Part shown: in pieces, positions 1,159-56,771 of the stretch
Numbering within the stretch: the first letter of the stretch is position 1
Layout of the letters: every line of letters starts with the position of its first letter
From: Vermamoeba vermiformis
Lineage: Eukaryota
NCBI GenBank assembly: GCA_045837725.1
Contig: JBEWZL010000236.1
Coordinates: forward strand, 1 to 64,000
Length of the DNA: 64,000 bases
Direction of reading: 5' to 3'
Program-made: the position numbers and the translations under genes
Notes under the pieces: generated by a model
The model's database searches: none
Told to the model about the DNA's origin: nothing
What the model saw: the letters and a program-made list of their open reading frames with translations, nothing else

Positions 1159-3136
1159 TTAAGCTCTTGAGCCCGTAGACAGCTTATGCGTCATCGCTCT
1201 ACTCTGTTTCTTTTTGTTCTTCTTGGTGACGAGGAGGGCAATCAGGATCACAGCACCAGCCACGACCACAGCACCCACGACAATCACTGCAATGCTCCAG
1301 TCTGGCAATGAAGGCGCTAATGGACTGTTATTTGCAGATTTGCAGGCAGAATTGTCTTGCACGACGATGATAGAGACGAGACCTGGCTTCGTGTCTTGGC
1401 GTGCGTTCAAAACAACACAATCGGAGACTAGGTGAAGCGCATCCGTTAGAACTGAAAGGTACCACGACCTATATTATATGGAGGATTGATTACTTACCAT
1501 CCCCATCTACAGTGATAGATTTGAAGTCGAGGTTCGAAGTGTCGCACGCAGCGTCGAAGATCAAGAATGATCGTTCAATTTGACCCGATTCAGTCAACGC
1601 GGTGATTTCTTCAGGAGTTAATGTCAAAGATAAAGATGCAGTGCCTATGCAAGTGTTAATTCGACCTTTGAACGCAGCGCAGGTACGATACCGTTGATGT
1701 TCGGACATCCATACACCACAATGACACCGTTGCTCACACTCAAATCACCCGAAATAGTCAAATTGCCGTTCACAATGATGTTGTCTACCGTTATGCCAGG
1801 TGTCAGCACCAAGTCTCCGTCGATCACCCACACGGCTTCATTGTCCGCATTCACTTGGCACTTCGCGTCAGGACGTGGAGCTGGCTGAATACATGGCACA
1901 CCTACGAGACTGACAGTTAGCATTTGACACGTGTCACTCGTGTGCCCTTCACAGACTTACACTGCACAGCTGTGGTAAAGCACTGCGGGTTCGTTGGTAT
2001 GCAGCACAAGTTGGTCGAAGACACGTCGCACTGGTTAGCTCGTTGAAAAGTCACGTTGTAACAGCCAGACAACGGATTGTTGGACACGTTGAATAGGGTC
2101 AAGTACGGCAAGCTTGCTAATCCTGTTGGAATCGTCCCCGTCAACTTGTTGCCGCTGACATCGAGCTCATACAAGTACGTCATGGATGCATATTCAACCG
2201 GAATAGTTCCGGTAAATTGATTGTTCTTCATACGTTGGTAAGATATGTATTGCGAGGCTAATTCTCTCGGGATAGTGCCATTCAATTTGTTGTCGTTGAG
2301 GTGAAATTGAATCAGCAACGGAAGTGACGCTAATTCGGGTGGTATGGTGCCAGTCAAACTATTTCCATATAAGTAAAGAAAGCGTAATTTAGACAGCTGG
2401 CCAAGTTCTTTTGGAATTGTGCCACTAAGCCGGCCTGACACCATAGAAATAGAGCTTAAGTATTGATGACTTCCCAAAGAAGCTGGTATTGTGCCATCTA
2501 CCTGGGTTCCGCTCAACTCCAAGCGAGTCAGATTTGGAAAAGGAGCCAAATCTGGAAATGCGCCGGACAAGTCTGAGTCGGAGATTATCAACTCGGTTAA
2601 TGGTAAGAATACATTGCTTGGTATCACTGGGAGCTGCACGTTCTTGCTAAATAGGACAGTAAGAGAGTAGAAGCGCGGTAGCGAAGCAATCTGCTGGGAG
2701 ATCGGCCGAACGAACGTTACATTCGCGAAAAAAATAGTCCCCAAGTATGGAAAGTCTGCAATCCAATCTCCAATCTCTGCAGACCTCTCAGCCGAACTCA
2801 GCGATCTGTAGTACAGCAAAAATTAGTTTTACGCTCCGAATTACGCTTTATCGATTATTGCCGTCACTATTATTAAGGCATTATATGTACATAAATCTTA
2901 TAAAAATACTGCAGTATTTCCTTTACTTACAAATCTGTAACGTGTTCTACCGTATTTATAAGGTTGCAGGAGATACCTCCCCAAGCGCAAGGATTAGTTC
3001 CAGTCCAGCCAGGATCAGGAGTGATAGACGCTTTAAATAAATTACATGCGTCAATCTCACTTTGCGGCAAGGCGAAGATCGTCGATCGAAGTGCCACAAA
3101 AAGCAGTAAGTAATAGCTATAATCTCTTGCTCTCAT
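1159..3136 (-). CDS. Leucine-rich-repeat receptor-like surface protein (signal peptide, LRRNT, plant-type LRRs, Cys/beta-rich stalk, TM, short basic tail)
   Basis: Signal peptide, WTGTNPCAWGGISC cap, repeated LxxLxLxxNxLxGxIPxxL units, TM WSIAVIVVGAVVVAGAVILIALLV, then TKKNKKK. No kinase domain. Exons join via GT-AG introns. Confidence 0.85.
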
Positions 3137-7919: not shown

Positions 7920-9637
7920 TTAGTGCTCAACCACTACCACTTCAGGCTTCTCGTCGTTATCTTTTTCAACGCTTGCCAGTAACATTTGTTCTTGCAACTT
8001 TACCACTCGCATGAACTCTTCAAGCTTTGCTTTCACTTCATTGGCAGTTTCGGGTCGTTTTGTAACCAATTTCTTCTGGATGCCGCGGGCTTGGGCATCT
8101 CTGGCAGCCATTTGATTTTTATAGTCAATAATATCCAAGCAAAATGCTGCTATTTGTGCATTGCACGTCGTAGATTTAATCTTGGCTTCTGTTAATTTGT
8201 CGTTCAAGTCTTCCAAGCTTTGAATCATTTCTCTGAACATGATCTGCGCACAAACAACCGCAAAACTGTACAAATCGGTAACAAACGAGTACTTGTTATG
8301 CAATTCAACGTCCGATGCAGTCCATATATCCATCACTTTCGCTTTGTAGGCTTCTTCGTCGTCTTTAGGAGAAAAACAGGGCAAGATCGCATCTCGCGAC
8401 ACCAATTTCGCCAATCCAAAATCTGCTAGTTTCAATAGCATCACGTCTTTGTATTTTGCAACATGATGGTCCTTGATGAAGAGAATATTGCGGGGATTGA
8501 TGTCACAATGAATTACGGCTTTGGCGCCGGGAATTTTAAACTGAATAAAGCGCAATGCAGCTGCCAGCTGTTTGATATATGACAATATCTCGCGGTCCGT
8601 TAGTTCTCCGATTCGGTCGGCCAAAGCTTGAAATTGGGTTAAAAAAAAGTTGCACGCGGATCACATCCCAACTTACAACAATCACAAATTTCAGCTTGCA
8701 AACCAGGCACGGTGTCTGAAGTAGCATTGAATTCATATACTTTCAGTATGTTGTGGTGGTTTAATTGCCGCATAATTTTGTATTCTTCGTAGAGATCTGT
8801 AGTGTCAGTTAAGATCTTCTTCAAAGCGTATTTCTTCCCGTCTTTTACTACTTGTCTGACTATTGAATATGATCCACGTCCTTTTATGTCATCGACTTCC
8901 GATTCTACTTCCACTGCTAGGAGTTTTTGTGATTCTTCGGGATCCGAGTTGATTTTTTCTGATTTTTTCGAGTTTCTAGTGCGTTTAACGATCAGATAAA
9001 CAGCAGTAACTGCCAAAGATAGTACTATCACCGCTATAATGAGATACATTGTTATGTCTGTTTCAGATTTTGTGAACGGGCGCTGATTTCCCGACGTGTC
9101 TGCGGTTGGTGTTCGCGCTGTTGGTTGGACTTGAATTGTAGGCGCCTGCACGGATTGAGGCACAGCAATTGGAGGACTCTGCAGTGGCGCGTTGGGCTGG
9201 ATGTACCAGCATCTTTGAATTTTATTTGCTGTGCAGTCGTAATTCTCCGCTCCTTCACAGGAATCAACTACGTCAGCCACGATGACCAAGACGGAGGTGC
9301 AAGCACCATCGCTGTACTGCCACAATATTGAAAAATTTCTTCCGCTTCCGTAGCTGATCAAGGATTCGTTGAAAGATCCCTCCGTTGCAGGACAAGATCT
9401 CGTCGTATAAATTGTTTGATTATTCCTTAGTTGAGGGGCACAGCCAGAACCATAACAGCTTTTAGGGTCGAATACCAACTCGAGAGTAAATTCAAATATA
9501 TCAACCTCGCATTTTTTTTTTGTCCCAAACCGTGTTAGCTGAACTATTCTAATAGTTAGTAACGCAAAATAATATAACTACATACATAAACAATTGGCAC
9601 CAACTATCAGGAAAAGGAGAATTGTGTATTTTAACAT
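7920..9637 (-). CDS. Receptor-like protein kinase (signal peptide, Cys-rich ectodomain, TM, kinase)
   Basis: ATG at 9637 (MLKYTILLFLIVGANC), followed by a phase-1 intron. TM YLIIAVIVLSLAVTAVYLIV. Kinase motifs GRGSYS, YALKK, HCDINPRN, DFG. The two ORFs in the track are joined by an intron at about 8627-8676. Confidence 0.85.
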
Positions 9638-9788: not shown

Positions 9789-11545
9789 ATGAAAAGAACA
9801 GCAATTCTCCTTGCCATTTTATCACTTACCGTCAGTGCCAACTGTGAATGTAAGCGCATTATTGTATCAAATTAAAGACTGTCCTTTTTTATGCAGACCG
9901 ACTCACACGGATGGGAACAAAAGAGATGTGCCTGACTGACGTTAATCATATTGTGTTGGAATCGATGCCAGAAAACTGTGTCGAGACAGAATGTCACCTA
10001 AATGGAGCAACATATATGACAACAACGTGCGATGAATCAGTGGGGTCATTCAACGAATCTCTCATCCAATACGGCGCTGGCAAAAACTTCACAATAGGAT
10101 GGTATTACACAGGCCCGACTTGTACCGACGTCAATGCAATTGAAGCGAAGGAAGTTACTTCTTGCGAAGGAGCTGCAAGTTTTGTATGCCAAAACGGCCA
10201 AACTAAATTTTGCTCCTACATCCAACCGCACGCTCCACAGACAGTGCCTCCGATAACCGTAGGGACTCCAGTACCCGTAGTTACACCGCCTATTCATCAA
10301 CAAGACCCTCCTATTGCTCCGTTAACCGAACCATCAGCACCGAGTCCGGTGGAACCTCCAGTAGTTCAACAACAATCCCCAACAGCTGTGCCAAGTGATG
10401 AGCGGCCACTAACGACATTTGAAAAGCTTGTAGTTGGATTCTCGATGGGTGGCTGGGCCGTGGCTGTTCTGTTCGTCATTCTCTACATCTACCAACGTCA
10501 ACAAACCAAATCCCACAACTACGAACCGCTGATTGAAGAACATGATCCAGAGCCACCTAACCAACCAACTGTCATTACCTCCGACAACAAGAATGCATTT
10601 AAACCGATCTTGCAAGAGAATAAGTCGCGGATGCAGAGCATTCCCCCATCCGAGTTAATTATCGACAAAACGAAGAAGCTCGGAGAGGGTCAAGCGTGCA
10701 ACGTGTACCAAGGATTTTGGCGCCAAAAGAAAGTTGCCATTAAAATTCCACGAGACCGCGACGCCGCTAAGCTCATGAAAGAATTGACAGTGTTTAGCGA
10801 AATAGAACCGCATCCAAACATTATCGAAGTCTTTGGATATTTTGAATACGAGGATAGGCTATGCATCGTGTTAGAACTATGTAATTGCCCAAGTAAGTCG
10901 AATTATTATGAGAATTCGGACGCTAACGAGAAACCAGATCTGGAGCAACTAGCCAAGCAAGAGTTGCCTATCAGTGATAAGTTCAATATCGCCATGGGTA
11001 TTGCTGCAGGCATGCTACATCTACATCACGCAAAACGACAAGTTATTCACCGAGATTTAAAGCCCGGCAACATCCTTGTTACGAGATCAGGAACGCATCT
11101 AATTCCAAAAATTGCAGACTTTGATTACTCGAGGTTGTTAGCCTCACCAACAGGCGTTACATACTCCACTCCTACCACCAGCTATGCTGCGCCAGAACAA
11201 TTAGCTGCCTCAGCCACCGCTAGAAAACAGTACAGCGTCAAATCTGACGTTTGGGCTTATGGCGCAACTTTGTTCTATTTATTAACTGGTCAAACTCCTT
11301 TTGCAGTTCAAAACTCGAGTGCTTTGAAAACGCAGCGATTGAACAAGCAAGCTTTGGTCAGATTCGAACTGCTGGATGCTCTTCCAACGGATCCATTCAC
11401 CGCGCTGATGGTAGATATTACACGCAAATGTTTAAATGACGATCCTACTAAGCGACCTGCATTCGACCGCATTGATTCTGAATTTGTAGATTTCTTCAAC
11501 AAGTTTTATCCGCACACCGCTAACAATAACAACGATATTCAATAA
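9789..11545 (+). CDS. Receptor-like TKL-type protein kinase, paralog of the divergent neighbour
   Basis: ATG at 9789 (MKRTAILLAILSLTVSANCE). Cys-rich ectodomain, Pro-rich stalk, TM. Kinase motifs GEGQAC, VAIK, HRDLKPGN, DFD, APE, SDVWAYG. In-frame 45-nt intron at 10893-10937. Confidence 0.9.
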
Positions 11546-11704: not shown

Positions 11705-14700
11705 TTATTTTACAATTTGTGTGAGTGTTTGTTGCTTGTACACGTTAGTTTTGTTTGGCACGACTTCAGTCAGGTCCTTGAGCGGTTCCAACAAGTAACT
11801 AATGACCGGAATAGCGAATGAATTGCCGAGCATTTCTTTGCGCTTCGTGTCCGAGTAATCATTGCACTCTGTGTAGCCCGATGGAAAGCCCAGCAACCGT
11901 TCACATTCGGACACTTTCAACGGCTTCAATTTGCCGTCAGCTCCGAGCACTGGATCGTAACGCGGGTTCTCGAGTCCCCATTCAACGGACTTGTCGGTGA
12001 ACTTCTGCACCGTGTTGTGTGTCGTGATGCAGTTCAGTTTTTCACGAAGAGCAATGCGATCTTGACTGAGGTAGAATTGGGCCTAGTGTTCAAGTTAGCA
12101 CTTTGCACGCGTGTTTGGCAATGTCTAGGACTCACGTATTGTTTCTCGGGATTTGACGCCTGTAACGGTCCCGTGCGCGGAATGTTCGTCCAATAATATC
12201 TGTTTCTGTGCGCACCACTCACTTGTGCCGCGTCAATTTTGACAGGTGACACGCCAAGGCAGTTTGAAATCTCGTCCTTGTCTTGCCGTCGCATGCTCGC
12301 TACATTCTCAAACAAGAAGAACGGAGTCTCGCCAGGATGTGACTCTTTGTACCACTTGAGAATCTTTACGAACTCGTAGAACAATCTACTTTGGCTGCCC
12401 TTCAGACCCTCTCTGCCTTTCTGTGAACAAGACACGTTAGTAAGTAGCACGTGCAAGCTCAACATGACGTCAATCAACGTACCTTCAACACAGACAAGTC
12501 ATTGCACGGACTGCCAGCAACAAACAAAGTGATCTTCGGCAAGCGTTCGACATCTTCCTTCGTGACTGACGTGATGTCCCAATCAGGGCCCACGCGAATG
12601 TACTTCACTGGCGGGCTTTTAGTCTCAGCAGCTCTTGAATGAATGTCAGTCACAGGGTATAACCAAATAAAGGCACCAACCTCTTTCTGATATTCATTTG
12701 CACCACTTGACGGCAATCAGAATCGATCTCGCAGACATAGTATTTTGCTACCTAAAGAGAACAAGCTCGTCAGTCAAAGAGCACTTTAACTATCACTCAG
12801 TACGTACGTTGATGCCGACTTGTTGCAATGCCACTAGTGCTCCACCAATGCCGTCAAAGCCTGAGAAAACATTGATTGGAGAATGGTCGGGCGGGAAGAA
12901 CATTTGACTGCACGTCTCGTAGAATTCTTTAGGACTGCAGCGCTGACTAAGTTCTTTCATGTTGTCAATCGGCTCTTGCGAGAACTGACTTAGCGGTGAG
13001 GAAGGATCGATTACAATCTGCTTCCTTCGTTTCTTTTTGGGTGAGGGATTATGTATAAGGCTGCCCTGTGATGGAGCTGAGGCCTGCAAGAAGGTGAATC
13101 AAATATAACTGGCAAAATATCAACTAGTGTACGTACTTGAGGGTGACTACTCGCAGGAGAGTCAGTGGGCATGGGCACGGGACTAAACTCCTCATCAGAG
13201 TCGAGAGAACTGCTCGAAGAGATTTCAATCATCTCCTGGAACTTTCTTTTCTTAGCGTTGATTGGTGACTTTTCATGAGAGTTGTAGCCAGAGAAGTACG
13301 GCTGCGTCTCTTGTATTTGCATGGGCACTTGTGGCTGGGGTTGCGTGGCAATGTCGAGGTTTCGGATGTGGGCGGGGGTGCTTGGTACCGAAGAGACATC
13401 GATCACTTCAGGCACTTTTGGTTGAGGCGGCATTTGTGATAACTCGGCGTACTGATCGTACAGTTGAGAGAGCACTTCATCAGGCAGCTCATCGACAATG
13501 TATTGAGATGGCACCTCGACTACTTCGTGCTGTGACTGCCACGGTCGAATATCGTCTTTGGACTGGTCCAACTCGCTGAAACTTTGATTAACTTCTGCTT
13601 CTTGTTCGGGCAAATTCTCGTCGTGGTCCTGTTGGTTTTCTTCGACGTAAGCCTCTTCTTGTGCTCGCCTCTGCTGCTGTTGTTGCAAGAGAGGGGTCGG
13701 AAGTATGGCTGCCAGTTGGCTGTCAGTGACTTGCGAGGCATCTGCTTGCGAGGAGAACGACTCTGACGACAAGCGCAACGGATCACTGTGTTCACTGTAC
13801 ATATTATTTACAAATGGATCGTTGGGCAAGTCGCGGAGTGAGCTCTGCAGCGTGGCAAGCAGTGGATTATGCTGTGGCAAGGGAAGAACTTTCTTACGGA
13901 CAGGACTTGGGCTCGTGCCAATGTCCTCCACTTGGAACATTTCCGCGGTTGCCACTGTGTTCGTTAGCTGAAACTTATTGACATAATTATCAAGCAGCTG
14001 ATTCCTGTCTGATTTCTCGGGTGTGTTTTTGTCGAATTGCTGCAGCACTGGCTGGATCTGCTTGTCCTCGGCGTGTCCTTCTCTTGAAGGGTAGTCGTTG
14101 TATTCTTGTTCCGAGTAGTAGCTGACTTCACCTGTCAGAACACTCACGTTGGCGTGGTAGTACCCAGCGGGTTGTGCGGGTAGGATTGGTTGAACCTGTT
14201 CGGTTTCATAATGCTGTGTCTCCGAGTTCGCGTACTCGTCACCAAGGTTCGAGTACTCCTGATACTCCACACTCTCCTCGACAGGTGCTTGATCTTTTTC
14301 GGCTTGAACGACCTCCTGAACTTCTTCATCGTCAACGTCATACACTTGATGTCGCTCAGGGCTATTTCTAGGTGTCGCACTGGCACTGTTAATTTCTTGG
14401 ACTTCTTTTTCATCCTCCGAGTCATCGTCCAACACGACATTCTTCTTGGGCGTTAATTTATTAATGGGCATTGGTGTGTAAGACGTTAGCCGAGGCTCGG
14501 ATTGGGCCTTGTTCTTCAGCCGTAAATCGAACATTTCCTTCGACCTTGGCGCTGAAAAACTACTCGCTTTGATTGGTGTGATGCCAACATGTGATCGCGA
14601 GGCACCACTGAACTTGTAACCTGCGTCTTTCATAGTGTCCAACATAGCAAATGGCGATACTGTCTTTGTTTTGCCTGGTGACGCAGTGGTTGTGACAGTA

Positions 14701-16296
14701 ATGTCTCCAGGACTAGAGCTAGCGACACGTGAAGTATTAGTGTTATTGTTATTGTTGGTGTTCGCGGGTGGGTTATTGCTTTTTTGTGGTGCTGTGTTTG
14801 TGGTTGACGTCGCCACTGTGTTTATCCTCGGTGCCTCTTTTGGCTTGTTGGGACTTTGTAACACTGCCCGTGGTGCGGGTGAATCTGCCGCCTTTCCTTT
14901 TGGCTCGGTGGATGGCTGCAAGGAATGCTTAGCTATCACAGAATTTACAATGTGCGTTGGTACTTTAATCACGGGACTATCAGTTGACGGAGTCAAGGAC
15001 TGTGACTCATTGCTGAGGTTATTGTTGCCGGCTCGTTGTCTGTCTTGATTAAGCTTGTTTTTGATCTCTTGTAACTTCTCTTGTGAAGCACGTCGCTGTG
15101 AGTCACGTGATCTTGTTCTCGGTCTGCGGACCAAGTCCTCGTCTTCGCTCTCGTTACTTGACTCCTTCGAGTTACTACTCTCACTCTCGCTTTCAACTTT
15201 AACTTCTTTCTTTACTTTCCTCTCGTGTTTAACTACCTTCTCGTGGGACTTCTTGACAGCGACACTTTTTGTTGTGCCTTGCTGGTTCGACTTCCTTTTG
15301 GACTCTGTCGATGACCGCCGCTTAGCAGGTGACGGCGGACTGCTGTCATCGATAATATTAAGCTCTGTGTCTTTTTTGGTTTTCAACATGAAATCACGCA
15401 GCTCTATTATCTTCAAGATGTCGTGACCAATTGTAATCTTCATGACTTCACTGAGGAACTTGGCGTCGAGCAAGTGAATAGAGCTCTCGCGTATTTCATG
15501 TTCCACGAAGATATTGACGTACTTTTCAATTTTAGCGGGTGTCCACTCGTCTGGTTGTTGCGAGAAGAAGTGCAGCCAGTACTCCCGCAGCTCGATTGGA
15601 AAATCCTCTTTGACAAACTCTTCCGATTTACGAACAGGATCTTTGTCGCAAAATTTTAATTTCGTTGCTTTGTAGTACTCTTTGAAGTAGTACACATTCG
15701 GATCGCGTTGTTCCTTCGAAGAGAGGGCTTTGTACTTCTGGTACGGCAAGACACGCACTTTGCCGGTGACTAAATGAGCAGGATTTTCGTCCATCATATC
15801 ACTTGGAAATAGCTCCCGGGAACCACATTTACGGTTGATAACTAAAATATTGGATTAGCGATCGAGTATGGCTTCGTATTTGCTTCTTCATCGATGAAAC
15901 TCGCCAAAAACCTCTATGAAAACTTACCGTCTGCAACATCAGTCGGCTTATAGTACCACCGGATGCCGAGCTGCGGCTGATCGAATTTGTCGCGCCAAAT
16001 GGATTCTAGGAAAAACGATAATATTTTAGCATCGCGTAATCGGTAATAATTATTAAAAATATGCTCTAAATTATCTCTACGCATGAAAATAATTTACAGT
16101 ACGATTTATGGATTAAATTATTAATATTAGGTATTTTCTTACTTATTTGACCAATGTACGGAGAGTCATCCTTGCCACTCCACATATAAACTCCATCTTT
16201 TACTGCGTATTCAACGTCATCTAAAACTACACTGTTGTAATAGGTGATCTCGCCGATCTGTTTAATGATCTCTGCAGCACGCCAAACAACATTCAT
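11705..16296 (-). CDS. DNMT3: DNMT3-type C5-cytosine DNA methyltransferase with N-terminal BAH and SAM domains
   Basis: MTase motifs VFSGFDGIGG, EID, GSPCNDLS, SRLFYEF, FLFENVASM, IDAAQVSGAHRNRYYWTNIP, ERLLGFPSGYT and LGNSFAIPVISYLLEPLKD are DNMT3-like. BAH: DGVYM..PYIGQI..IW..IRWYYKP..RELFPSD..ENPAHLVTGKVRVL. SAM: KYVNIFVEHEI..LLD..L..MKITIGHDILKI. The 13084-13136 intron joins the long ORF to the MTase in frame. Confidence 0.9.
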
Positions 16297-16477
16297 TATT
16301 GTCTTATTAACGTATGCCTAACTCCATTATTTATTGTTTTGTATGTAATATGGTATTGCACGCAACGCACAGAATGAAGACTACGCATTTTGATTCGCTC
16401 TATTTTCGCACTCGATCGGCACGTGCCAGCAAGCCTAAATAATACAAAATTCGCTTTATTACGATATACTAGCGTGT

Positions 16478-18301
16478 TTACAATTCCTCCAAAGGAATGT
16501 CACGGCCCTTGTCTTCCTCGGCGTGGGCAGTACGCAACTCCTTGACGCGAACAAGACCCTTGCTCCACTCATCAGGAGCAATCAAGACAGCGCGGTTGGC
16601 ACCAATACGATCAGCGTAGTTGAAGCACCAAGGGATCTTCTTGCCAGGGATCAATTGAACTTCAACGGCACGACCCTTCTCGCGCAACCTGAAGATATGA
16701 ACGTTAGCACAAAGTAACACGCGGCACGGGCAATGCACTTACTTGTTGGCGACTTGGTAAGCATTTACTCGCATAGCCTCGTCATAAGCAATAACAATGT
16801 CATCGATCTCAGGAGGAATTTCAGTGTACAAGCCCTTCTCCTTCAACAACTCGACAATGACGCAGTCACCGAAGCCAAAGCCAGCAGCGGGAATTTCAGT
16901 CTTGGAACCGTACAACGTCAACAAACCGTCGTAACGACCACCTCCGCAAATAGCACGCAATTGGACCTGATTGTGAATGTTAGATAAACGCTCTACTTGC
17001 ATGTGTCAAGCTACTTACAGGAGGCTTGGCAAAAGCTTCAAAGACAATGCCAGTGTAGTAGGCGAGACCACGAACAACGGAGGCATCGAATTGGAGCCAG
17101 TCCTCGAAGCCGTAGGCCTTGGCGTATTTCCACAAGTCACGGAACTCAACCATGACAGGTGAGTCCTTGCCGAGGACCTCTTCCAGTTGGCTCAAGTCCT
17201 TGATAGTGAGAGTTGAGTTGATCTTAGCAATGACATCTTCAGAGAGACCGAGTTCAGCCAACATCTTTTGCACGGCTTCAGCTTCCAATTTGTCGAGCTT
17301 GTCAACGATAACGCAGACAGGGGCGAACTTTTCCTTGGTGACGCCGAGAGGCTCCAAAACATTTTGCAAGACCTTGCGACTGTTAATCTTAATGCCGACA
17401 TCCTTGCTGGTCAAGCCCAATGACTTGAAACAGGTGGTGATAGCTGCGAGCAATTCAACTTCAGCAGTGACTTCCTTGACACCAACAATGTCCATGTTCC
17501 ACTGGTAGTGCTCGCGCTTGCGACCACGAGTGGTGTTTTCGTACCGCCAGCATTGAGGAATGGAGAACCAGCGGATGGGCAACAAAAGGTTGCGACCAGT
17601 CTTCAAAATTAAACGAGCAAGTGTAGGGGTCATTTCAGGACGAAGAGTAACGTTGTATTTGTCCTTGTCCTAGTATTTTGTAAAATTAGTGATAAGAGCT
17701 CTTGTTGTACGAATGAAAAGGTCCTACCTCAAAGTTGTACATTTGTTGAGTGATTTCTTCTCCAGCCTTTCGCTTGTAAAGTTCTTCGAGTTCCAAGATA
17801 GGAGCGTCATATTCCTTAATTGAAGCATTTTAATACCGCGATCCGATCTGCATCAACCGAGTCGACTTACTTGGAAAGCAAAGCGTCTAGCAGCTTCTCT
17901 AAACTTGCCAAACAACCAATTTCGCATTCTCATATCGACGGGGAGGAAATCTCGAGTACCAATGACGGGCTCGGTTTCAATAATACCTAAATAAATGGAT
18001 GTCAGTAACCGAATTTTGCATAAATATTTTCTGCTAATAAAACTTATTAAATATCATATTATTGATATTTATTATGATTTTAGAAGCAAGGAAAAATTAT
18101 GAGCGAATTAATTTTGAATTTTAGGATAAATATTTAAAATTTTCAAAACCGCCGCTGTTTTTAACTCCTTATACCTTTCTTTGCGTTACGACCACGCTTA
18201 GACTCATTAGTATTTTCTCCCTTCTCCTTCTTCTCCTTCTTGGGTTTGTTGTCAACGGGATTAGCTGCCTGATCTACTTTCTTCTGTTCGTTATTTTCCA
18301 T
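16478..18301 (-). CDS. hisS: Histidyl-tRNA synthetase
   Basis: Motifs [57 protein letters not shown] and GFGFGD, plus the anticodon-binding domain. Multi-exon. Confidence 0.95.
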
Positions 18302-20401: not shown

Positions 20402-22027
20402 ATGTCAAATAGAGGTAAGCAACTCGCTCATTAAAGGCGTGATGGAATCGAGATCCGATATTTTTCTCATTTCTGAAGACCACCTGACATTTAATTATTA
20501 ATAAGACATCTAAATTACTGGACTATGAAACAATAATTTCTTAGATTTTTTCTAAAAATTGTATTAGGCTGGGGACAACCAAATTCTGGTTCGAGAGGTG
20601 GATGGGGCCGTGGAGGCAGTCAATCCATTCAATATAACACTAAGCCAAAGACTACAAATACCAATGACTCATCGAACACTAATGACACAACCTCGAGCAC
20701 CTCGAATAATAATTATCGTGGCAATAATAGTTCTCGAGGCCGCGGTGGAGGTCGAGGAGGACGAGGACGAGGAAATAACAGCACTAATAGCTATAATAAC
20801 AATAGTAATTATAACAATAACAATAATGCTGGTCGAGGACGAAATAACAATCAGCCTCGTACAACGAAAAAACAAGCAGTTGTGATCGATTACACTCAGC
20901 CTTACAAAGGTAAGCCCCAAAAATATTACTAATACGAGTATATACTGACTTCATTAACAGGACTCGAGAAAATTGTTTCGGGAGGTGAAACAGGAGCGGA
21001 TCGAGCAGGTCTTGAGGCTGGTGTTGAGCTCGGCATCGCTACTGGAGGTAAGAAACAATACAAATATGTATAATTTGGTCGAACTAAACGAATGATCACC
21101 AGGCTTCGCGATGAAAGGCTTCAAAACTGAAGCTGGGAATGATCCGTCTTTGGCAGATCTCGGAATTGAAGAAGAATTCAATATTCATAGCTTCAGCGAT
21201 CTCTCCTCGTTAGTGCGTATTATTAATCCATAATCCGGTCTTCATCCGAGCTCGGTTGCTGACTCTATTTTTAGAATGCTGAATCCGCTGACGCAACACT
21301 AGCCTTCAGACTGCACGACAGTAAAGGCACTGATCGGACCATTGGATACTGCTTCGATCGAGTGTATTCCGAGAATGGCTCGTATCGCATTAGAAGTTCA
21401 GATTGGTGCTACAAGCCAGTGCTGATCATTACTAGTTTGAGTGACAAGGACCAAGAGAAGAACGAAACAGACATTAGGAACTTTGTGATTAGGAATCAAA
21501 TTCGCGTGTTGAACATCGCTGGTCATCGCGAGTCAACTGCTGGCATTGATAACTTCGGTGAAAAAGTTCAACAATTGCTGGTCAGTGCTCTGACACCTGT
21601 CATCAAGCCTAACGTAGAATCGCTGGAAAAACTCAAAGAACAAGGCATTCAAATTGAAAAGGGAGAAAAACCAGCACAAACAAAAGAACACAAGTACGAA
21701 ATTGCAGCTAAATTTAGACCATTTGTAGTCAACTCGAAGAAGACCAAAGACTACGACGTGTATATTGGCAGACCTTCTAAATGGGGCAATCCGTTTGTGA
21801 TTGGCAAGGACGGTGATCGATATGACGTGTGCAAGCAGTTTGAAGAGTGGATCTTGACTCAGCCCAAGATGATTGCTGAGGCCAAACAAGAACTCGCTGG
21901 CAAACGTATTGCGTGCTTTTGTGCGCCACTTCAATGCCACGGCGAGACATTAGCCCGCATTGCTAACTCTGATTATGGCACAGAGGAGAAAAAGCAGACA
22001 AATAACACTAACAAAAATGTAAAATAA
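20402..22027 (+). CDS. RGG/Asn-rich N-terminus + circularly permuted YpsA (SLOG, MoCo-carrier-like) domain + DUF4326 domain
   Basis: Five exons. cpYpsA: KIVSGGETGADRAGLEAGVELGIATGGF..N..ADATLAF..SKGTDRTIGYC..KPVLII..VLNIAGHRES. DUF4326: DVYIGRPSKWGNPF..ELAGKRIACFCAPLQCHGETL. Confidence 0.85.
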
Positions 22028-22050: not shown

Positions 22051-23321
22051 CTATTTTTGACCGTACATCTCATCAATGATTTGATCCATTGTTTTTTGTT
22101 CGACGCGAATAGTGCCGTGAATCTCACCAATGATGCGATCCATGTCGTTTTGCAGCACCATGTTGGGACCGGCATTGAACTTATTGTTGCGCACTCGATT
22201 AAGTAAGTCCTCTTCTTCGCCATTCAAGTAGTTGTCTCCGAGGGGCAGCGACGATAAGGTGTGATTAAAACTCAAGTTCTCTTCGATGTACCGCCAATCC
22301 GCTACATCTCGACAGCCAATACTGTTCTTGGACACGTCAAGCACTCTCAACCCAATGTTGTTTCTCATCGCGACTATTAACTCAGTGAAGCCATCAATAG
22401 TGATGTTGTTGCGTTGAAGAGCTAAGTGCAATAGTGTCGTGTTTCGTTTCAAAGCCTCACCTAGCATGTGACAGCCTTTATCACCGAGGTAATTGCCATC
22501 GACCAAGCCCGGCATGCAACCAACTTGTAGCGTCCTTAAGACCGTGTTGTGGCACAATAGATCAGCCAACATTCTCGCACCGCCTGGGTAGATATTGTTC
22601 GAGTTCAAGCTGAGTGACGTCACTGACGGGTGATAGCGCAGAGCTCCACAAAGGTGATCCACTCCGATGTCAGTTACCGCGTTGTTATCGAGATCGATTG
22701 TCCGCAATGAGTTGTTGTGTTTGATCGCCTCGCTCAACACACGTACACCCTCATCGCCAATTTGATCACGTGACAATGAGAGAGACTTGATAGTGCTGCT
22801 GGCCCGCACAAAATCAGCGAGGGTTTGCATAAAGGGCAGTTGTTGCGCTATTGCGCTTATTGAGCCTAAATTTAGGTCTTCAATGGTGTGGCTGGATTTC
22901 AACGCTTCAATAATTGGCAGCATATTGCACGTAGGACTGAATTTTAATTGGAAGTTCAGTATCCTAATCGATCTGTTTTGTCTTAACGCATCCGCCAATA
23001 ATTGAACTTGTTCTTGTTGGTGCAAAAACAAACTGGTGTACGAAGTAATAGACGTGCTTGCTTTTAGGGCATCGGCAAGAACTCGGAACTGATCTACCTC
23101 TTCAGCTCTGCCATAATAAACTGAGTCGAAGTTGATTGTAGCCAAACCGTTGTCGATTAGAAACGGTTGTTTAGCTAACATCGCCTTATGTATTTCTTCC
23201 ACTGATTTTAGAATCTACGAACGAGGCCGGATTAGTATTTTAAGCAAGGTTTCTGATCGCATCCTTGAGGGTTGCGATATTGTTTAGAATAATTTGCTAA
23301 CAAACTTACTGGTAGAGCCAT
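22051..23321 (-). CDS. RI-type (NLRC3/RanGAP-like) leucine-rich-repeat protein
   Basis: Repeats of about 28 aa (LxxLxLxxNxIGDxGxxxLxEALKxN). A 12-nt first exon (MALP) begins at 23321. Confidence 0.85.
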
Positions 23322-34660: not shown

Positions 34661-35857
34661 ATGGTATGTCGTGCGACCTTACTACTCCAAACCTTCTAAA
34701 GATTTTATAGCCACGCTTTGCTGCGTTGCTCATCGGGGTGTCTGCATTTGACGAACCTGATGTTTTCCCTCCTTTACCTGGCGTTACAAACGACTTAGAA
34801 ATTATGAAAACGTTGGAAGAATACGGATTTGAGGTGCAGTCGTATTTGAATCTACCCAAGAAGCAAATCTTGCAGAAGATCGAAAACTATGACGGAGAAG
34901 TATTGGAAACCTTCGTACTCTACTTTAGTACCCATGGTACATCAAAGGGGAACATGGGGTACTTAATCCCACGAGATGCTCGGGGTGGAAAGAAAAACAA
35001 CGTCGTTCTAGACACCGCCATCTCAGCAACAGAAATCATGGATTCTCTTGCTGGCATTAAAGCAAAGCGAAAGCTTTTGCTTTTGGATACTTGTCATTCT
35101 GGTGGCTTTTTTAAACTCAAGAACATTTCCAAGGCTCCCAACCAACTGGGTAAATCCGGATTAAATTCTTTCATCGAGCGAGCCAGCGAGCAGAATTTCG
35201 GGCAAGGAAGAGGATTGGCCGTAATTTCTGCGGCGCGCAACGGCGAGGCCGCAGTTTGCGAAGACGATGGCAGCGTTTTCACGAAGAGATTCGTCGAGAC
35301 ACTCCGTTCAATTCCAAAAGATCAGATCATGCTCTTCACCCTAGTAAAAAAGCTACAAAAGGCTATGGAGAATGATGCACATATGCCAGTATTTAAGTGC
35401 GACAATGTCACCGAAGTCTACGCTTGGCTAATTGCCCGTAACCCAAACTTTGCTCAAATTACAGTGCAGGAGGAGCATAAGGAAGCAGCAGATGCTACTC
35501 CAACTGCACCAACATTAAAGCGAAAGCGCTCAGAATTTGAAGACAATGAGAAGCCTCCCCACAAAAAGAGCAAAACAGAGGCTGCGTAAGTGAATCCGCT
35601 GGACGAATTATTCTAATTATTTTGATAGTTGCTTGCACAAGAATGCCGTAACTAAGAAGTCTTATACTGAGCGTAATCCAGGAAAATACTTTCGTAAATG
35701 TCCAGATTGCAATCACTTTGAGTGGCGCTGCCCTGAATTGTCTGATAAATCAAAAGATCAGCTTAAGAGCTTGTGCCAAGAGATGAATCTTAAGCGAAGT
35801 GGTACGAAAGCCGAATTGCGCGATCGTATTCTTGTCTCTTACAAAAACGCGATGTAG
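34661..35857 (+). CDS. Caspase-family (peptidase C14, metacaspase/orthocaspase-like) protease fused to a GRF zinc finger and a SAP domain
   Basis: ATG-only first exon. Protease motifs ALLIGV, LPGVTND, YFSTHG and LLLDTCHSG. NLS KRKR-x11-KKSK. A 43-nt GT-AG intron (35586-35628) splices in frame to CLH..NPGKYFRKCPDCNHFEW (GRF) and QLKSLCQEMNLKRSGTKAELRDRI (SAP). Confidence 0.85.
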
Positions 35858-54984: not shown

Positions 54985-56771
54985 TTACTTGAAGTGAGTG
55001 CGCAAGTGGACTTTCATGTTGCTGCTTTGGGAGAACTGTTTGTCGCAGTGAGTGCAAACATAGGGCTTCTCGCCAGTGTGGACGCGCAAGTGACGGTTAA
55101 GGTTCGAACCGTTTGAGAACGACTTGCCACACTCTTCGTAGGGGCAGACGTAAGGCTTCTTCTTTTGGTGGATGTTCATGTGGTCCTTGAGGGTGTTGCT
55201 GTGAGTGAAGGCTTTGCCACATTCTTCGCACACGAAGGGCTTCTCAGCAGTGTGAGTGCGGAGGTGCTTGTTCATGTTGGAGCTGTCGCTGAAGGTCATG
55301 TCGCACTCGGGGCAGTGGAACACGCCGTCATCGTCCTTAGCCATACGAGTGTCAATGATAGTCACTGACACGGTGAATCCCTTCTTGTTGGAGCGAGGGG
55401 ACTTGGCTTCCTTTTGGCAGCTGGACACGACGCTCTCAGCGCATTCGACGTCTTCGCAGACGGGCTCTTGTTTGATCTTCTTAGGGGCATCGCCTCTAAG
55501 ATCTTCAGCGCTCTTTCGCAAGTAGTTTTTGCGCTTGCGAGTAGCAGGCAATTCAGTTTCCATTTCAGAGCAAGAGCGAGGTGAGCTGTTGCCTGAGCCA
55601 CGAGGAGAGCGGCGATGAATGCCATCTTCGGTATCTGCAGCAGCGGGGCTAGCGGCAGCCAAGTGGCACGCTGAAATGCAAGTGGATTCAAGTTTAACTT
55701 GTTGTTCCATTTGATCAACGTAGAATTTGATCTTTTCGAGAGTCGGTGCTGAGAGCTTGTCCAACTCGAAAGTCCATTCCTCGTGTTCTTGGATCAATAG
55801 ATTTGGTTCTTCTTGCGAAACAATGTTCAAAATGCCGCGCAAGATTGCTTTGTTGCCTAGGCTTGCAATTTTCTTTGCCAAATCGGTTTTATCTTGATAG
55901 CTCATTTCGCTGAATATAAATTGTTAATGTTTGCTTGGAGTGACGTTTGCAAATCCAAACGGATCACACGTCCAGAATTTTCTTGTAATGCGCGCACAGA
56001 ATGAAATTAATGATGACGATGAATATTACGTTCAATTTCCCATCAATCAATGATAATTTGAGGCAAATTAGCAAGATTCGACAAAAGACTTTTACTGCTC
56101 AGGTAGAGCAAACTTGACGTCATGAAGTCAATTTGAATGGCCGGCAATTGAAGATAAATGTGCTCGATGGTGAACTTACCCAGTGAGTTGCATGGCATTT
56201 AATTCGTGACCAGCAGAAGAGATGGGAATTCTAGAATCTGTGGTGAAGATTGTATTTTCGACTTCCATAGTATCGCAGGTAGCTGGGAGATTGGCGTCGA
56301 AGCCTAAAAAGTCAGGGTATTCCATTCCAATAGGGTCCATTGTTGTATCCAGGATTTCTGAAAAAGTGTTCTGTAAGCAAACAGAAAGAGAGACAAGGAA
56401 GCAAAGAGAAGATATGCTTGCGTGGTTAAATCTTTTAATAGTCATGTAAAATGATGTTCATAAAACGGGACAGAAAGTGCACGCCCGCCAAGAAAAAGCT
56501 GCGCGTTTTTTTTGTTGCAGATTCTGATTTGGGAAAAGAATTTCTTGTCTAATTGAATTAGTAACATACCCATAGATTCGCCACGTTGGGAAAAGGCGAA
56601 GGCAACTGGAGGGGCAGTGTACTCGAGGCAAGGCTCGGTAGCCCATACGATAGGTTCGTTCATTAACGAAAGGCGTCTGTTTTCATACTCTTCGCGAGGC
56701 ATGAAGCCACGATCGTAGAGATCCTTCAACATATCCAAATTGTCGGCAGGTGATTGCTTAACTTTACCCAT
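54985..56771 (-). CDS. ET (extra-terminal) domain + four Kruppel-type C2H2 zinc fingers; upstream exon encodes a SHOCT-like motif
   Basis: ET: MSYQDKTDLAKKIASL..LRGILNIVSQEEP..EEWTFELDKLSAPTLEKI. Zinc fingers with HTAEKPF/HTGEKPY linkers. SHOCT-like LDMLKDLYDRGFMPREEYENRR. Confidence 0.85.

Follow-up and report, generated by a model that had tools for sequence, protein, structure and literature searches.

Animal DNMT3 enzymes are aimed by a PWWP domain, which reads H3K36me, and by an ADD domain, which reads unmodified H3K4, and plant DRM enzymes are aimed by small RNAs. In DNMT1, CMT (ZMET2) and DIM-2, a BAH domain and a C5 cytosine methyltransferase share one polypeptide. In DIM-2, the RFTS and BAH1 domains read H3K9me3, and this mark stimulates the enzyme; according to the same source, no canonical DNMT3 is known in fungi (PMC13297926). 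Protist and algal DNMT3s are described, in the main text of three surveys, without companion or chromatin domains (PMC12344493, PMC11244446, PMC9998398). Here we analyze a gene of Vermamoeba vermiformis that lies on the minus strand of a 64-kb window, by which we mean the whole stretch of DNA analyzed (positions 1 to 64,000 of contig JBEWZL010000236.1, assembly GCA_045837725.1). It encodes a protein of 1365 amino acids (aa), in which an N-terminal BAH domain and an adjoining helical module are connected by a long linker to a C-terminal DNMT3-type methyltransferase.

The window protein resembles DNMT3A and DNMT3B in its overall plan, namely, an N-terminal chromatin module, a linker and a C-terminal methyltransferase, as well as in the methyltransferase itself, which displays the same linear motif order, an identical GSPCNDLS motif, ENV, RxR and an ITT-x-x-x motif in the target recognition domain (TRD) (154–164 bits). 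It differs from them in that the BAH domain and the helical module replace PWWP and ADD, motif X reads GNSF and not GRSW, and the TRD loop is longer by ~9–10 residues. It also forms no specific branch with insect DNMT3s in our trees. With DNMT1, CMT and DIM-2 it shares the combination of BAH and methyltransferase, and the BAH domains of DNMT1 and ZMET2 are among its structural matches. However, its catalytic domain comes from a different family, and its single N-terminal BAH domain is nearer to those of polybromo, ASI1, BAHCC1 and EBS (E from 1e-8 to 1e-10) than to those of ZMET2 (1e-3) and DNMT1 (0.04); RFTS, CXXC and chromodomain are absent. EBS, SHL, AIPP3, BAHCC1 and BAHD1 have the same BAH fold and Tyr...Trp-x-Tyr cage positions, whereas the histidine that in these proteins stacks on H3 Pro30 is Met in the window protein (the neighbouring Asp is kept), the PHD finger and coiled coil are missing, and the output module is a methyltransferase. 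Finally, Amoebidium, Acanthamoeba, diatoms and red algae likewise have DNMT3-family enzymes in unicellular eukaryotes, but these have no identifiable companion domains in the survey texts, whereas the window family has a BAH domain above the Pfam cut-off.

The enzyme family is a known one, whereas the domain architecture is new, and we infer the function of the protein from domain content and constraint. On balance, we favour the reading that the locus is one intact nuclear gene, which is expressed and encodes a DNMT3-family enzyme that is probably targeted by its N-terminal BAH domain and not by PWWP/ADD.

A single gene very probably encodes both ends of the protein

The gene (11705..16296, minus strand) runs from an ATG at 16296–16294 to a TAA stop at 11707–11705, as read from the sequence. 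It comprises eight exons (16296–16143, 16005–15928, 15841–13137, 13083–12808, 12751–12681, 12633–12483, 12420–12136 and 12082–11705) and seven introns, which in gene order measure 137, 86, 53, 56, 47, 62 and 53 nt and are bounded by GT..AG in 7/7 cases. When the exons are joined and translated in silico, they yield a coding sequence of 4098 nt and 1365 aa with 0 internal stops. CTAAC/CTGAC-like branch sites can be read in the short introns. The intron at 13084–13136, cited in an earlier note on this DNA as an example of clean splicing, is exact (53 nt, GTACGT...TTGCAG); it must go, because the frame into the methyltransferase is kept only by its removal.

Close relatives provide further evidence on the gene model. 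Four proteins of close relatives, at the level of open reading frames (ORFs), were found among the 647 candidates of a homology search that used the beginning of exon 3 as query. A single 90% cluster of relatives contains P0137 and P0138, both of 1363 aa, whose contigs measure only 4203 and 4516 nt, together with P0135 (832 aa, on a 3137-nt contig). Residues 1–1365 of the window protein align to residues 1–1363 of P0137 with 78.8% identity, and every splice junction is covered. P0126, which comes from the species of P0137 and is encoded on a contig of 608 kb, is 99.5% identical to residues 93–1071 of P0137 and departs from it exactly at the exon 4/5 junction; therefore, the genome of this species has an intron there and P0137 represents the spliced product. 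Thus, an intron-free 1363-aa form of a relative spans both ends on transcript-sized contigs, which bears out the proposal of one gene, not two. Furthermore, in the P0123 and P0126 species the linker and exon 4 form one unbroken genomic ORF, and the metagenome contig L001 carries the entire gene in the same order, next to a histidyl-tRNA synthetase (HisRS) gene. Intron 3 (13084–13136) is missing at that position in the P0123/P0126 species and was therefore gained or lost within the family.

A long linker of biased composition could in principle hide a gene boundary, in which case the BAH–helical part and the methyltransferase would be separate genes or transcripts fused by a faulty gene model. 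This is contradicted by the one open frame that passes through 8/8 exons, by the relative's intron-free 1363-aa forms, which cover both ends on single contigs, by the single genomic ORF of P0123/P0126 and by the order kept in L001, and we regard an artefact of this kind as extremely improbable. On sequence grounds, the window gene is very likely a single gene.

The family is found in at least five closely related lineages, represented by the window with P0121, by P0122, by P0123/P0137, by P0124 and by L001. Selection was estimated from the comparison of the window with L001 only, in which synonymous sites are saturated (proportion of synonymous differences, pS, 0.64–0.94). On this pairwise estimate, the BAH domain, the helical module, the methyltransferase and the C-terminal tail show strong purifying selection.

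The catalytic domain is of the DNMT3 type

The C5 cytosine methyltransferase domain (11768..12885, minus strand; residues ~1046–1345, exons 4–8) contains motif I (FDGIGG), motif IV (GSPCNDLS, with the Cys codon at 12506–12504), motif VI (ENV, 12309–12301), motif VIII (HRNRYYW) and motif X (GNSF), all on the minus strand. The catalytic PC and ENV motifs that had been reported for the gene are thus accompanied by motifs I, VIII and X; motifs I, IV (PCN), VI (ENV), VIII (RxR) and X are all intact, conserved and in linear, non-permuted order. Pfam PF00145 reaches 73.7 bits in P0135, and exon 8 of the window by itself 27 bits (cut-off 22). The methyltransferase shows 84% identity between the window and L001 (proportion of nonsynonymous differences, pN, 0.097, with synonymous sites saturated).

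A phmmer search of PDB with the methyltransferase domain of the orthologue (E ≤ 0.01) gave 45 matches: 29 to DNMT3A/B/C (127–164 bits), 6 to DRM-type enzymes (60–64 bits) and 10 to M.HhaI (~22 bits). DNMT3B is the best match (163.7 bits, E 9e-47), with DNMT3A at ~153–160 bits. The alignment with DNMT3B is unbroken from motif I to motif X (residues 4–279) and includes the TRD; the DRM-type matches fall in two stretches, as expected of a permuted relative. No DNMT1, DNMT2 or DNMT5 catalytic domain was retrieved by this query at the same threshold.

Exon 7 (12136–12420), which covers motifs IV–VIII, is 50–57% identical to stand-alone C5 methyltransferases of ~290 aa of prokaryote/phage type from metagenomes (125 matches among 212 candidates), and one such methyltransferase is fused to the phage-type domain DUF1351. 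When compared with the whole catalytic domain, the stand-alone enzymes score up to 140 bits and align outside the TRD only. Maximum likelihood trees were built with 25 of the 99 stand-alone enzymes in a quick version (40 rows, with 16 partial long proteins left out) and 13 of the 99 in a careful version (28 rows); three DRM-type rows were rearranged to linear order beforehand, and the trees contain no DNMT1, 2, 4, 5 or 6 references. Both trees separate the stand-alone enzymes from a set of 15 eukaryotic DNMT3/DRM rows, to which the window and the orthologue belong, with support of 98 (quick) and 99/98 (careful). A constraint uniting the other 13 eukaryotic rows without the window pair gave p = 0.031 in the approximately unbiased (AU) test. 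By sequence, the DNMT3/DRM core has close relatives outside the eukaryotes in the stand-alone prokaryote/phage-type enzymes. We also considered that the catalytic domain as a whole might have come from a prokaryote or a phage, and rejected this on account of the PDB scores, the TRD-less alignments and both trees. The assignment to DNMT3 made in the earlier note is therefore upheld by the PDB scores and by the grouping with eukaryotic DNMT3/DRM rows among the families sampled.

The TRD motif, ITTHNT (12028–12011, minus strand), had been proposed to signal an altered sequence-context preference. It is found in the window and L001, the P0137 lineage has ITTRNT and DNMT3B has ITTKSN, such that the position in question is His, Arg or Lys, respectively; for animal DNMT3A, the earlier note gives Arg (ITTRSN). 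We regard the TRD histidine as ordinary within-family variation, because this position already varies among relatives and DNMT3B, and the proposal is not sustained.

The BAH–DNMT3 pairing is confined to one family in our searches

As had been stated for the window gene, PWWP and ADD are absent: neither gives a Pfam match with E ≤ 1, whether in P0137 or in the separate pieces of the window exons. Among 30 long proteins (749–2386 aa) that match the catalytic domain, none has a BAH domain (0/30) and three have PWWP and ADD (3/30); conversely, 0 of the 149 nearest BAH relatives have a match to the catalytic domain at E ≤ 10. The pairing was not found in the literature either, where the main texts, and not the survey supplements in which an exception might stand, were covered. 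The suggestion that this architecture had not been described thus agrees with the sequence searches, which found it nowhere else, and with the three surveys cited above, in so far as their main texts describe protist DNMT3s.

The closest catalytic relative outside the family is P0139 (805 aa; 37% identity, 167 bits), of metagenome or Logan origin. It has a Cys-rich region with a sub-threshold match to ADD_DNMT3, lacks PWWP and is possibly, judging by these features, a non-animal ADD-bearing DNMT3.

Copia and DIRS retrotransposons harbour some members of the DNMT3 family (PMC12344493), and retroelement-type domains occur in some of the long proteins that match the catalytic domain. The window methyltransferase might accordingly belong to a transposon or to a virus integrated in the genome, like some dinoflagellate and charophyte DNMT3s, rather than be a host gene for chromatin. 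In the window protein, however, only BAH and DNA_methylase are significant in Pfam, with no reverse transcriptase, integrase or capsid domain; moreover, the gene has spliceosomal introns, its synteny with HisRS is kept in L001, all its domains are under strong purifying selection, and a scan of viral contigs yielded no relative among its 2 pattern matches. We give this possibility next to no weight.

The BAH domain has a complete aromatic cage

The BAH domain (15630..16296, minus strand; residues ~1–148, exons 1–3) had been recognized in the earlier note, and the assignment holds: with a cut-off of 30.8, Pfam PF01426 reaches 58.1 bits in the orthologue P0137 (87% identity with the window protein over this region), and AlphaFold and Foldseek agree. 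The part of the domain in window exon 3 is detected with a Pfam E-value of 2.3e-4. AlphaFold2, run with a 38-sequence alignment, gave a block-mean predicted local distance difference test (pLDDT) score of 87–98 for residues 11–140. Of the 110 Foldseek matches at E ≤ 0.001, the best is the BAH domain of BAHCC1 with H3K27me3 (E 5.5e-13); the other top matches are PBRM1 BAH1, the rice ASI1 BAH, the TNRC18 BAH with H3K9me3, DNMT1, EBS and ZMET2. By sequence, the PDB entries rank in the order polybromo, ASI1, BAHCC1, EBS, TNRC18, SHL, RSC2, AIPP3, ZMET2 and DNMT1. Window and L001 share 76% amino-acid identity over the domain.

The first 243 residues were also compared with 1.84 billion representatives in an exhaustive HMMER search, in which 198 matches reached E ≤ 0.001. 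Nine of the top matches from outside the family, when scanned for domains, comprise five polybromo-type proteins, one protein with two BAH domains only, one BAH-SET, one BAH-ADD-SNF2 and one ORC1-like protein. Derivation of the BAH domain from DNMT1 was dismissed, since the top relatives that match in two stretches are polybromo-type and not DNMT1.

H3K27me3-reading BAH domains of the EBS/SHL/AIPP3/BAHCC1 type bind the mark through an aromatic cage of one Trp and two Tyr, and select it by a His and a neighbouring Asp through H3 Pro30 (PMC13068663). In the window protein, Tyr47 (16158–16156), Trp68 (15958–15956) and Tyr70 (15952–15950, all on the minus strand) align with the Y...W-x-Y columns of rows judged to be EBS/SHL-like by length and motifs. 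On the strength of these positions, the BAH domain is plausibly equipped for methyl-lysine binding, although the mark cannot be named. The complete cage makes the earlier proposal of a BAH domain that reads a histone mark plausible, whereas the histidine for H3K27me3 selectivity is replaced by Met.

A highly conserved helical module follows the BAH domain

Directly after the BAH domain lies a helical module of ~85 aa (15366..15626, minus strand; residues 150–236), which had been described as SAM-like and is possibly a divergent SAM domain. When the module was scanned by itself (87 aa), SAM_2 and SAM_1 were the only Pfam entries at E ≤ 10, and both remained below threshold: SAM_2 (PF07647) at E 0.039 and 14.6 bits against a cut-off of 20.5, and SAM_1 (PF00536) at E 0.074 and 13.9 bits against a cut-off of 23. 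No SAM match appeared when the whole of exon 3 or P0137 was scanned against Pfam. AlphaFold predicts three helices with a block-mean pLDDT of 49–72, and a second run gave a mean pLDDT of 59 and a predicted template modelling (pTM) score of 0.39; with such low confidence in both runs, the model is too uncertain for a comparison with known folds such as the compact five-helix bundle of SAM domains. The SAM assignment was therefore not confirmed, as it falls short of both Pfam cut-offs and of a confident fold prediction; a divergent SAM-like fold nevertheless remains our somewhat better guess for the module.

Searches for relatives gave equally little. Against PDB, phmmer returned chance-level matches (best E 0.11), and the Atlas feature search gave no usable match. 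Outside the family no relative of the module was detected among the 1.84 billion representatives; of the 150 matches listed, only P0122 extends past residue 160. Yet no other part of the protein is as well conserved as the module, which has 96% identity and pN 0.018 between the window and L001. This combination of top conservation and no detectable relative makes it an unexplained element in its own right. A two-copy complex prediction of the module gave no answer (score 0.00 against a mark of 0.32) and speaks neither for nor against binding.

Linker and C-terminal tail

The linker (12886..15341, minus strand, including intron 3; residues ~245–1045) has a biased composition with basic KKRK/KKKRRK stretches. 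It had been described as ~850 aa of low-complexity sequence; the compositional bias is real, whereas the length is ~800 aa and five blocks are nearly invariant. These islands (residues 356–367, 485–496, 537–551, 750–798 and 941–956) vary at no more than one position in every 12 residues across five relatives, in which 43% of all linker columns are invariant. Residues 750–798, in exon 3, form a nearly invariant block of 49 residues inside the linker. Residues 941–956, likewise in exon 3 (KKRK, then hydrophobic and Ser/acidic residues), look like a nuclear localization signal followed by a SUMO-interaction-like motif. Only chance-level Pfam entries (E 0.07 and above) were obtained for the linker, with no significant domain, and between the window and L001 it is 63.5% identical (pN 0.224).

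The C-terminal tail (11708..11767, minus strand; last 20 aa) is 95% identical between the window and L001 (pN 0.042, pS 0.935). Its last nine residues, QQTLTQIVK, are the same in the window, P0137 and L001. The sequence QQTLTQIV (11734–11711) had been likened to a PCNA-interacting protein (PIP) box, the consensus of which is Q-x-x-[ILM]-x-x-[FY]-[FY]. The Gln and Leu of the consensus are present, and Ile-Val stands instead of the aromatic pair. The PIP motif of DNMT1 is QTTITSHF (PMC13645674), with which QQTLTQIV shares Q, T, [I/L] and T (4/8 positions). We treat the PIP resemblance of the tail, which is a likeness of motifs, as a lead only.

A BAH-targeted DNMT3 and its alternatives

In the mechanism that we propose, the Tyr47/Trp68/Tyr70 cage of the BAH domain would bind a methylated histone lysine, this binding would tether the C-terminal catalytic domain to marked chromatin via the flexible ~800-aa linker, and the catalytic domain would methylate DNA de novo at these sites. 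The mark could be H3K9me or H4K20me as likely as H3K27me3, because the H3K27me3-specifying histidine is missing. The helical module may offer a surface for protein–protein interaction, either for self-association or for a fixed partner, and the linker islands and the QQTLTQIVK tail may be further docking motifs. Histone binding, the mark itself, de novo activity, oligomerization and PCNA contact are all steps that we infer.

Several observations weigh against this reading. The PDB sequences closest to the BAH domain are polybromo BAH1 (E 2.8e-10) and the rice ASI1 BAH (E 6.9e-10), and polybromo BAH1 is not known as a methyl-lysine reader. ASI1, for its part, recognizes a motif of the protein SUVH6 (PMC9910501). 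In addition, the column that reads SD-H-x-D in the H3K27me3 readers is SD-M-M-D in both the window and P0137, with His replaced by Met and Asp kept. With respect to the catalytic domain, its place inside the DNMT3/DRM clade is a polytomy. Lastly, CpG observed/expected in the 64-kb window is 1.09 (0.89–1.39 per 2 kb), and the window genes are without the deamination footprint of heavy CpG methylation. The CpG value fits targeted methylation elsewhere and equally fits little or no methylation. GpC observed/expected in the window is 1.22 and TpA 0.75.

The first of these observations raise an alternative function for the domain. Some BAH domains have other targets, such as a partner protein or the core of the nucleosome, or regulate in cis, and the window BAH might likewise read no histone methyl mark and instead bind such a target or regulate the catalytic domain through autoinhibition or allostery. 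The sequence ranking, in which polybromo BAH1 and ASI1 come before BAHCC1 and EBS, the polybromo type of 5/9 top relatives scanned, the protein motif recognized by ASI1 and the lost selectivity histidine all point in this direction. On the other hand, 3/3 cage positions are aromatic, as in reader BAHs, the first cage position is His in one alignment of polybromo BAH1, and the best structural match is BAHCC1 with H3K27me3, with TNRC18 and H3K9me3 near the top. We therefore consider a non-reading BAH domain the less probable option, although one to be taken seriously, and prefer a BAH domain that reads a methylated lysine.

The lack of a methylation footprint in the window could also be taken to mean that the protein is a catalytically silent regulator of the DNMT3L kind or acts on RNA. 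Such a function is hard to reconcile with catalytic motifs that are intact and conserved from I to X and with the low pN of the methyltransferase at saturated synonymous sites, and we judge it very improbable.

The BAH-targeted enzyme can also be imagined in an extended form, close to that envisaged in the earlier note, in which the BAH domain would read a heterochromatic methyl-lysine, the module would polymerize head to tail in SAM-like fashion and the tail would dock PCNA. Such a read-write-spread machine is, in our opinion, a long shot. If it were true, enzyme molecules would coat a chromatin domain, and a DNMT3-family enzyme would both establish and propagate 5-methylcytosine at marked chromatin; a protist would then have arrived independently at a DNMT1/CMT-like logic, with a de novo enzyme as its basis.

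Genomic neighbourhood

The methyltransferase gene is immediately preceded on its own strand by the HisRS gene (16439–17669, minus strand), and ~180 nt lie between the HisRS stop and the methyltransferase ATG. The adjacency is kept in L001, where HisRS (2299–2967, plus strand) is 95.5% identical over 223 aa. On the other side, a protein kinase gene (9854–11545, plus strand), whose Pro-rich N-terminal part was read as receptor-like, is convergent with the methyltransferase gene, the two stops being ~160 nt apart; a kinase of the tyrosine kinase-like (TKL) type is among the neighbouring genes. An ORF at 21275–22027 (plus strand), ~5 kb from the BAH-DNMT3 gene, encodes DUF4326 (PF14216, E 5e-24) and a circularly permuted YpsA SLOG domain. 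In the long proteins P0145, P0150 and P0154, the last two from Prorocentrum cordatum, DUF4326 occurs in fusion with DNMT3-like methyltransferases; the proximity of the ORF to the BAH-DNMT3 gene may be coincidental. Further ORFs at 8639–9577 (minus), 1917–2822 (minus), 22051–23214 (minus), 34711–35589 (plus) and 54985–55923 (minus) encode a kinase fragment, leucine-rich repeat proteins, a metacaspase and a BET plus C2H2 zinc-finger protein. The leucine-rich repeat, TKL-type kinase and metacaspase genes and the short introns with their branch sites hint at an amoebozoan-like protist. The window has a GC content of ~43%, and no rRNA, tRNA or other Rfam match was found in its 64 kb.

Implications for DNMT3 targeting

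The protist and algal DNMT3s without companion domains, as the main texts of the surveys describe them, raise the question of what directs de novo methylation to its sites outside animals and plants. A cage-bearing BAH domain on a DNMT3 enzyme would represent an independent solution to this targeting problem, in which the reader type of the DNMT1/CMT/DIM-2 lineage is joined to another methyltransferase family. The window gene thereby gives a concrete protein with which the link between a histone mark and de novo methylation may be tested in a unicellular eukaryote.

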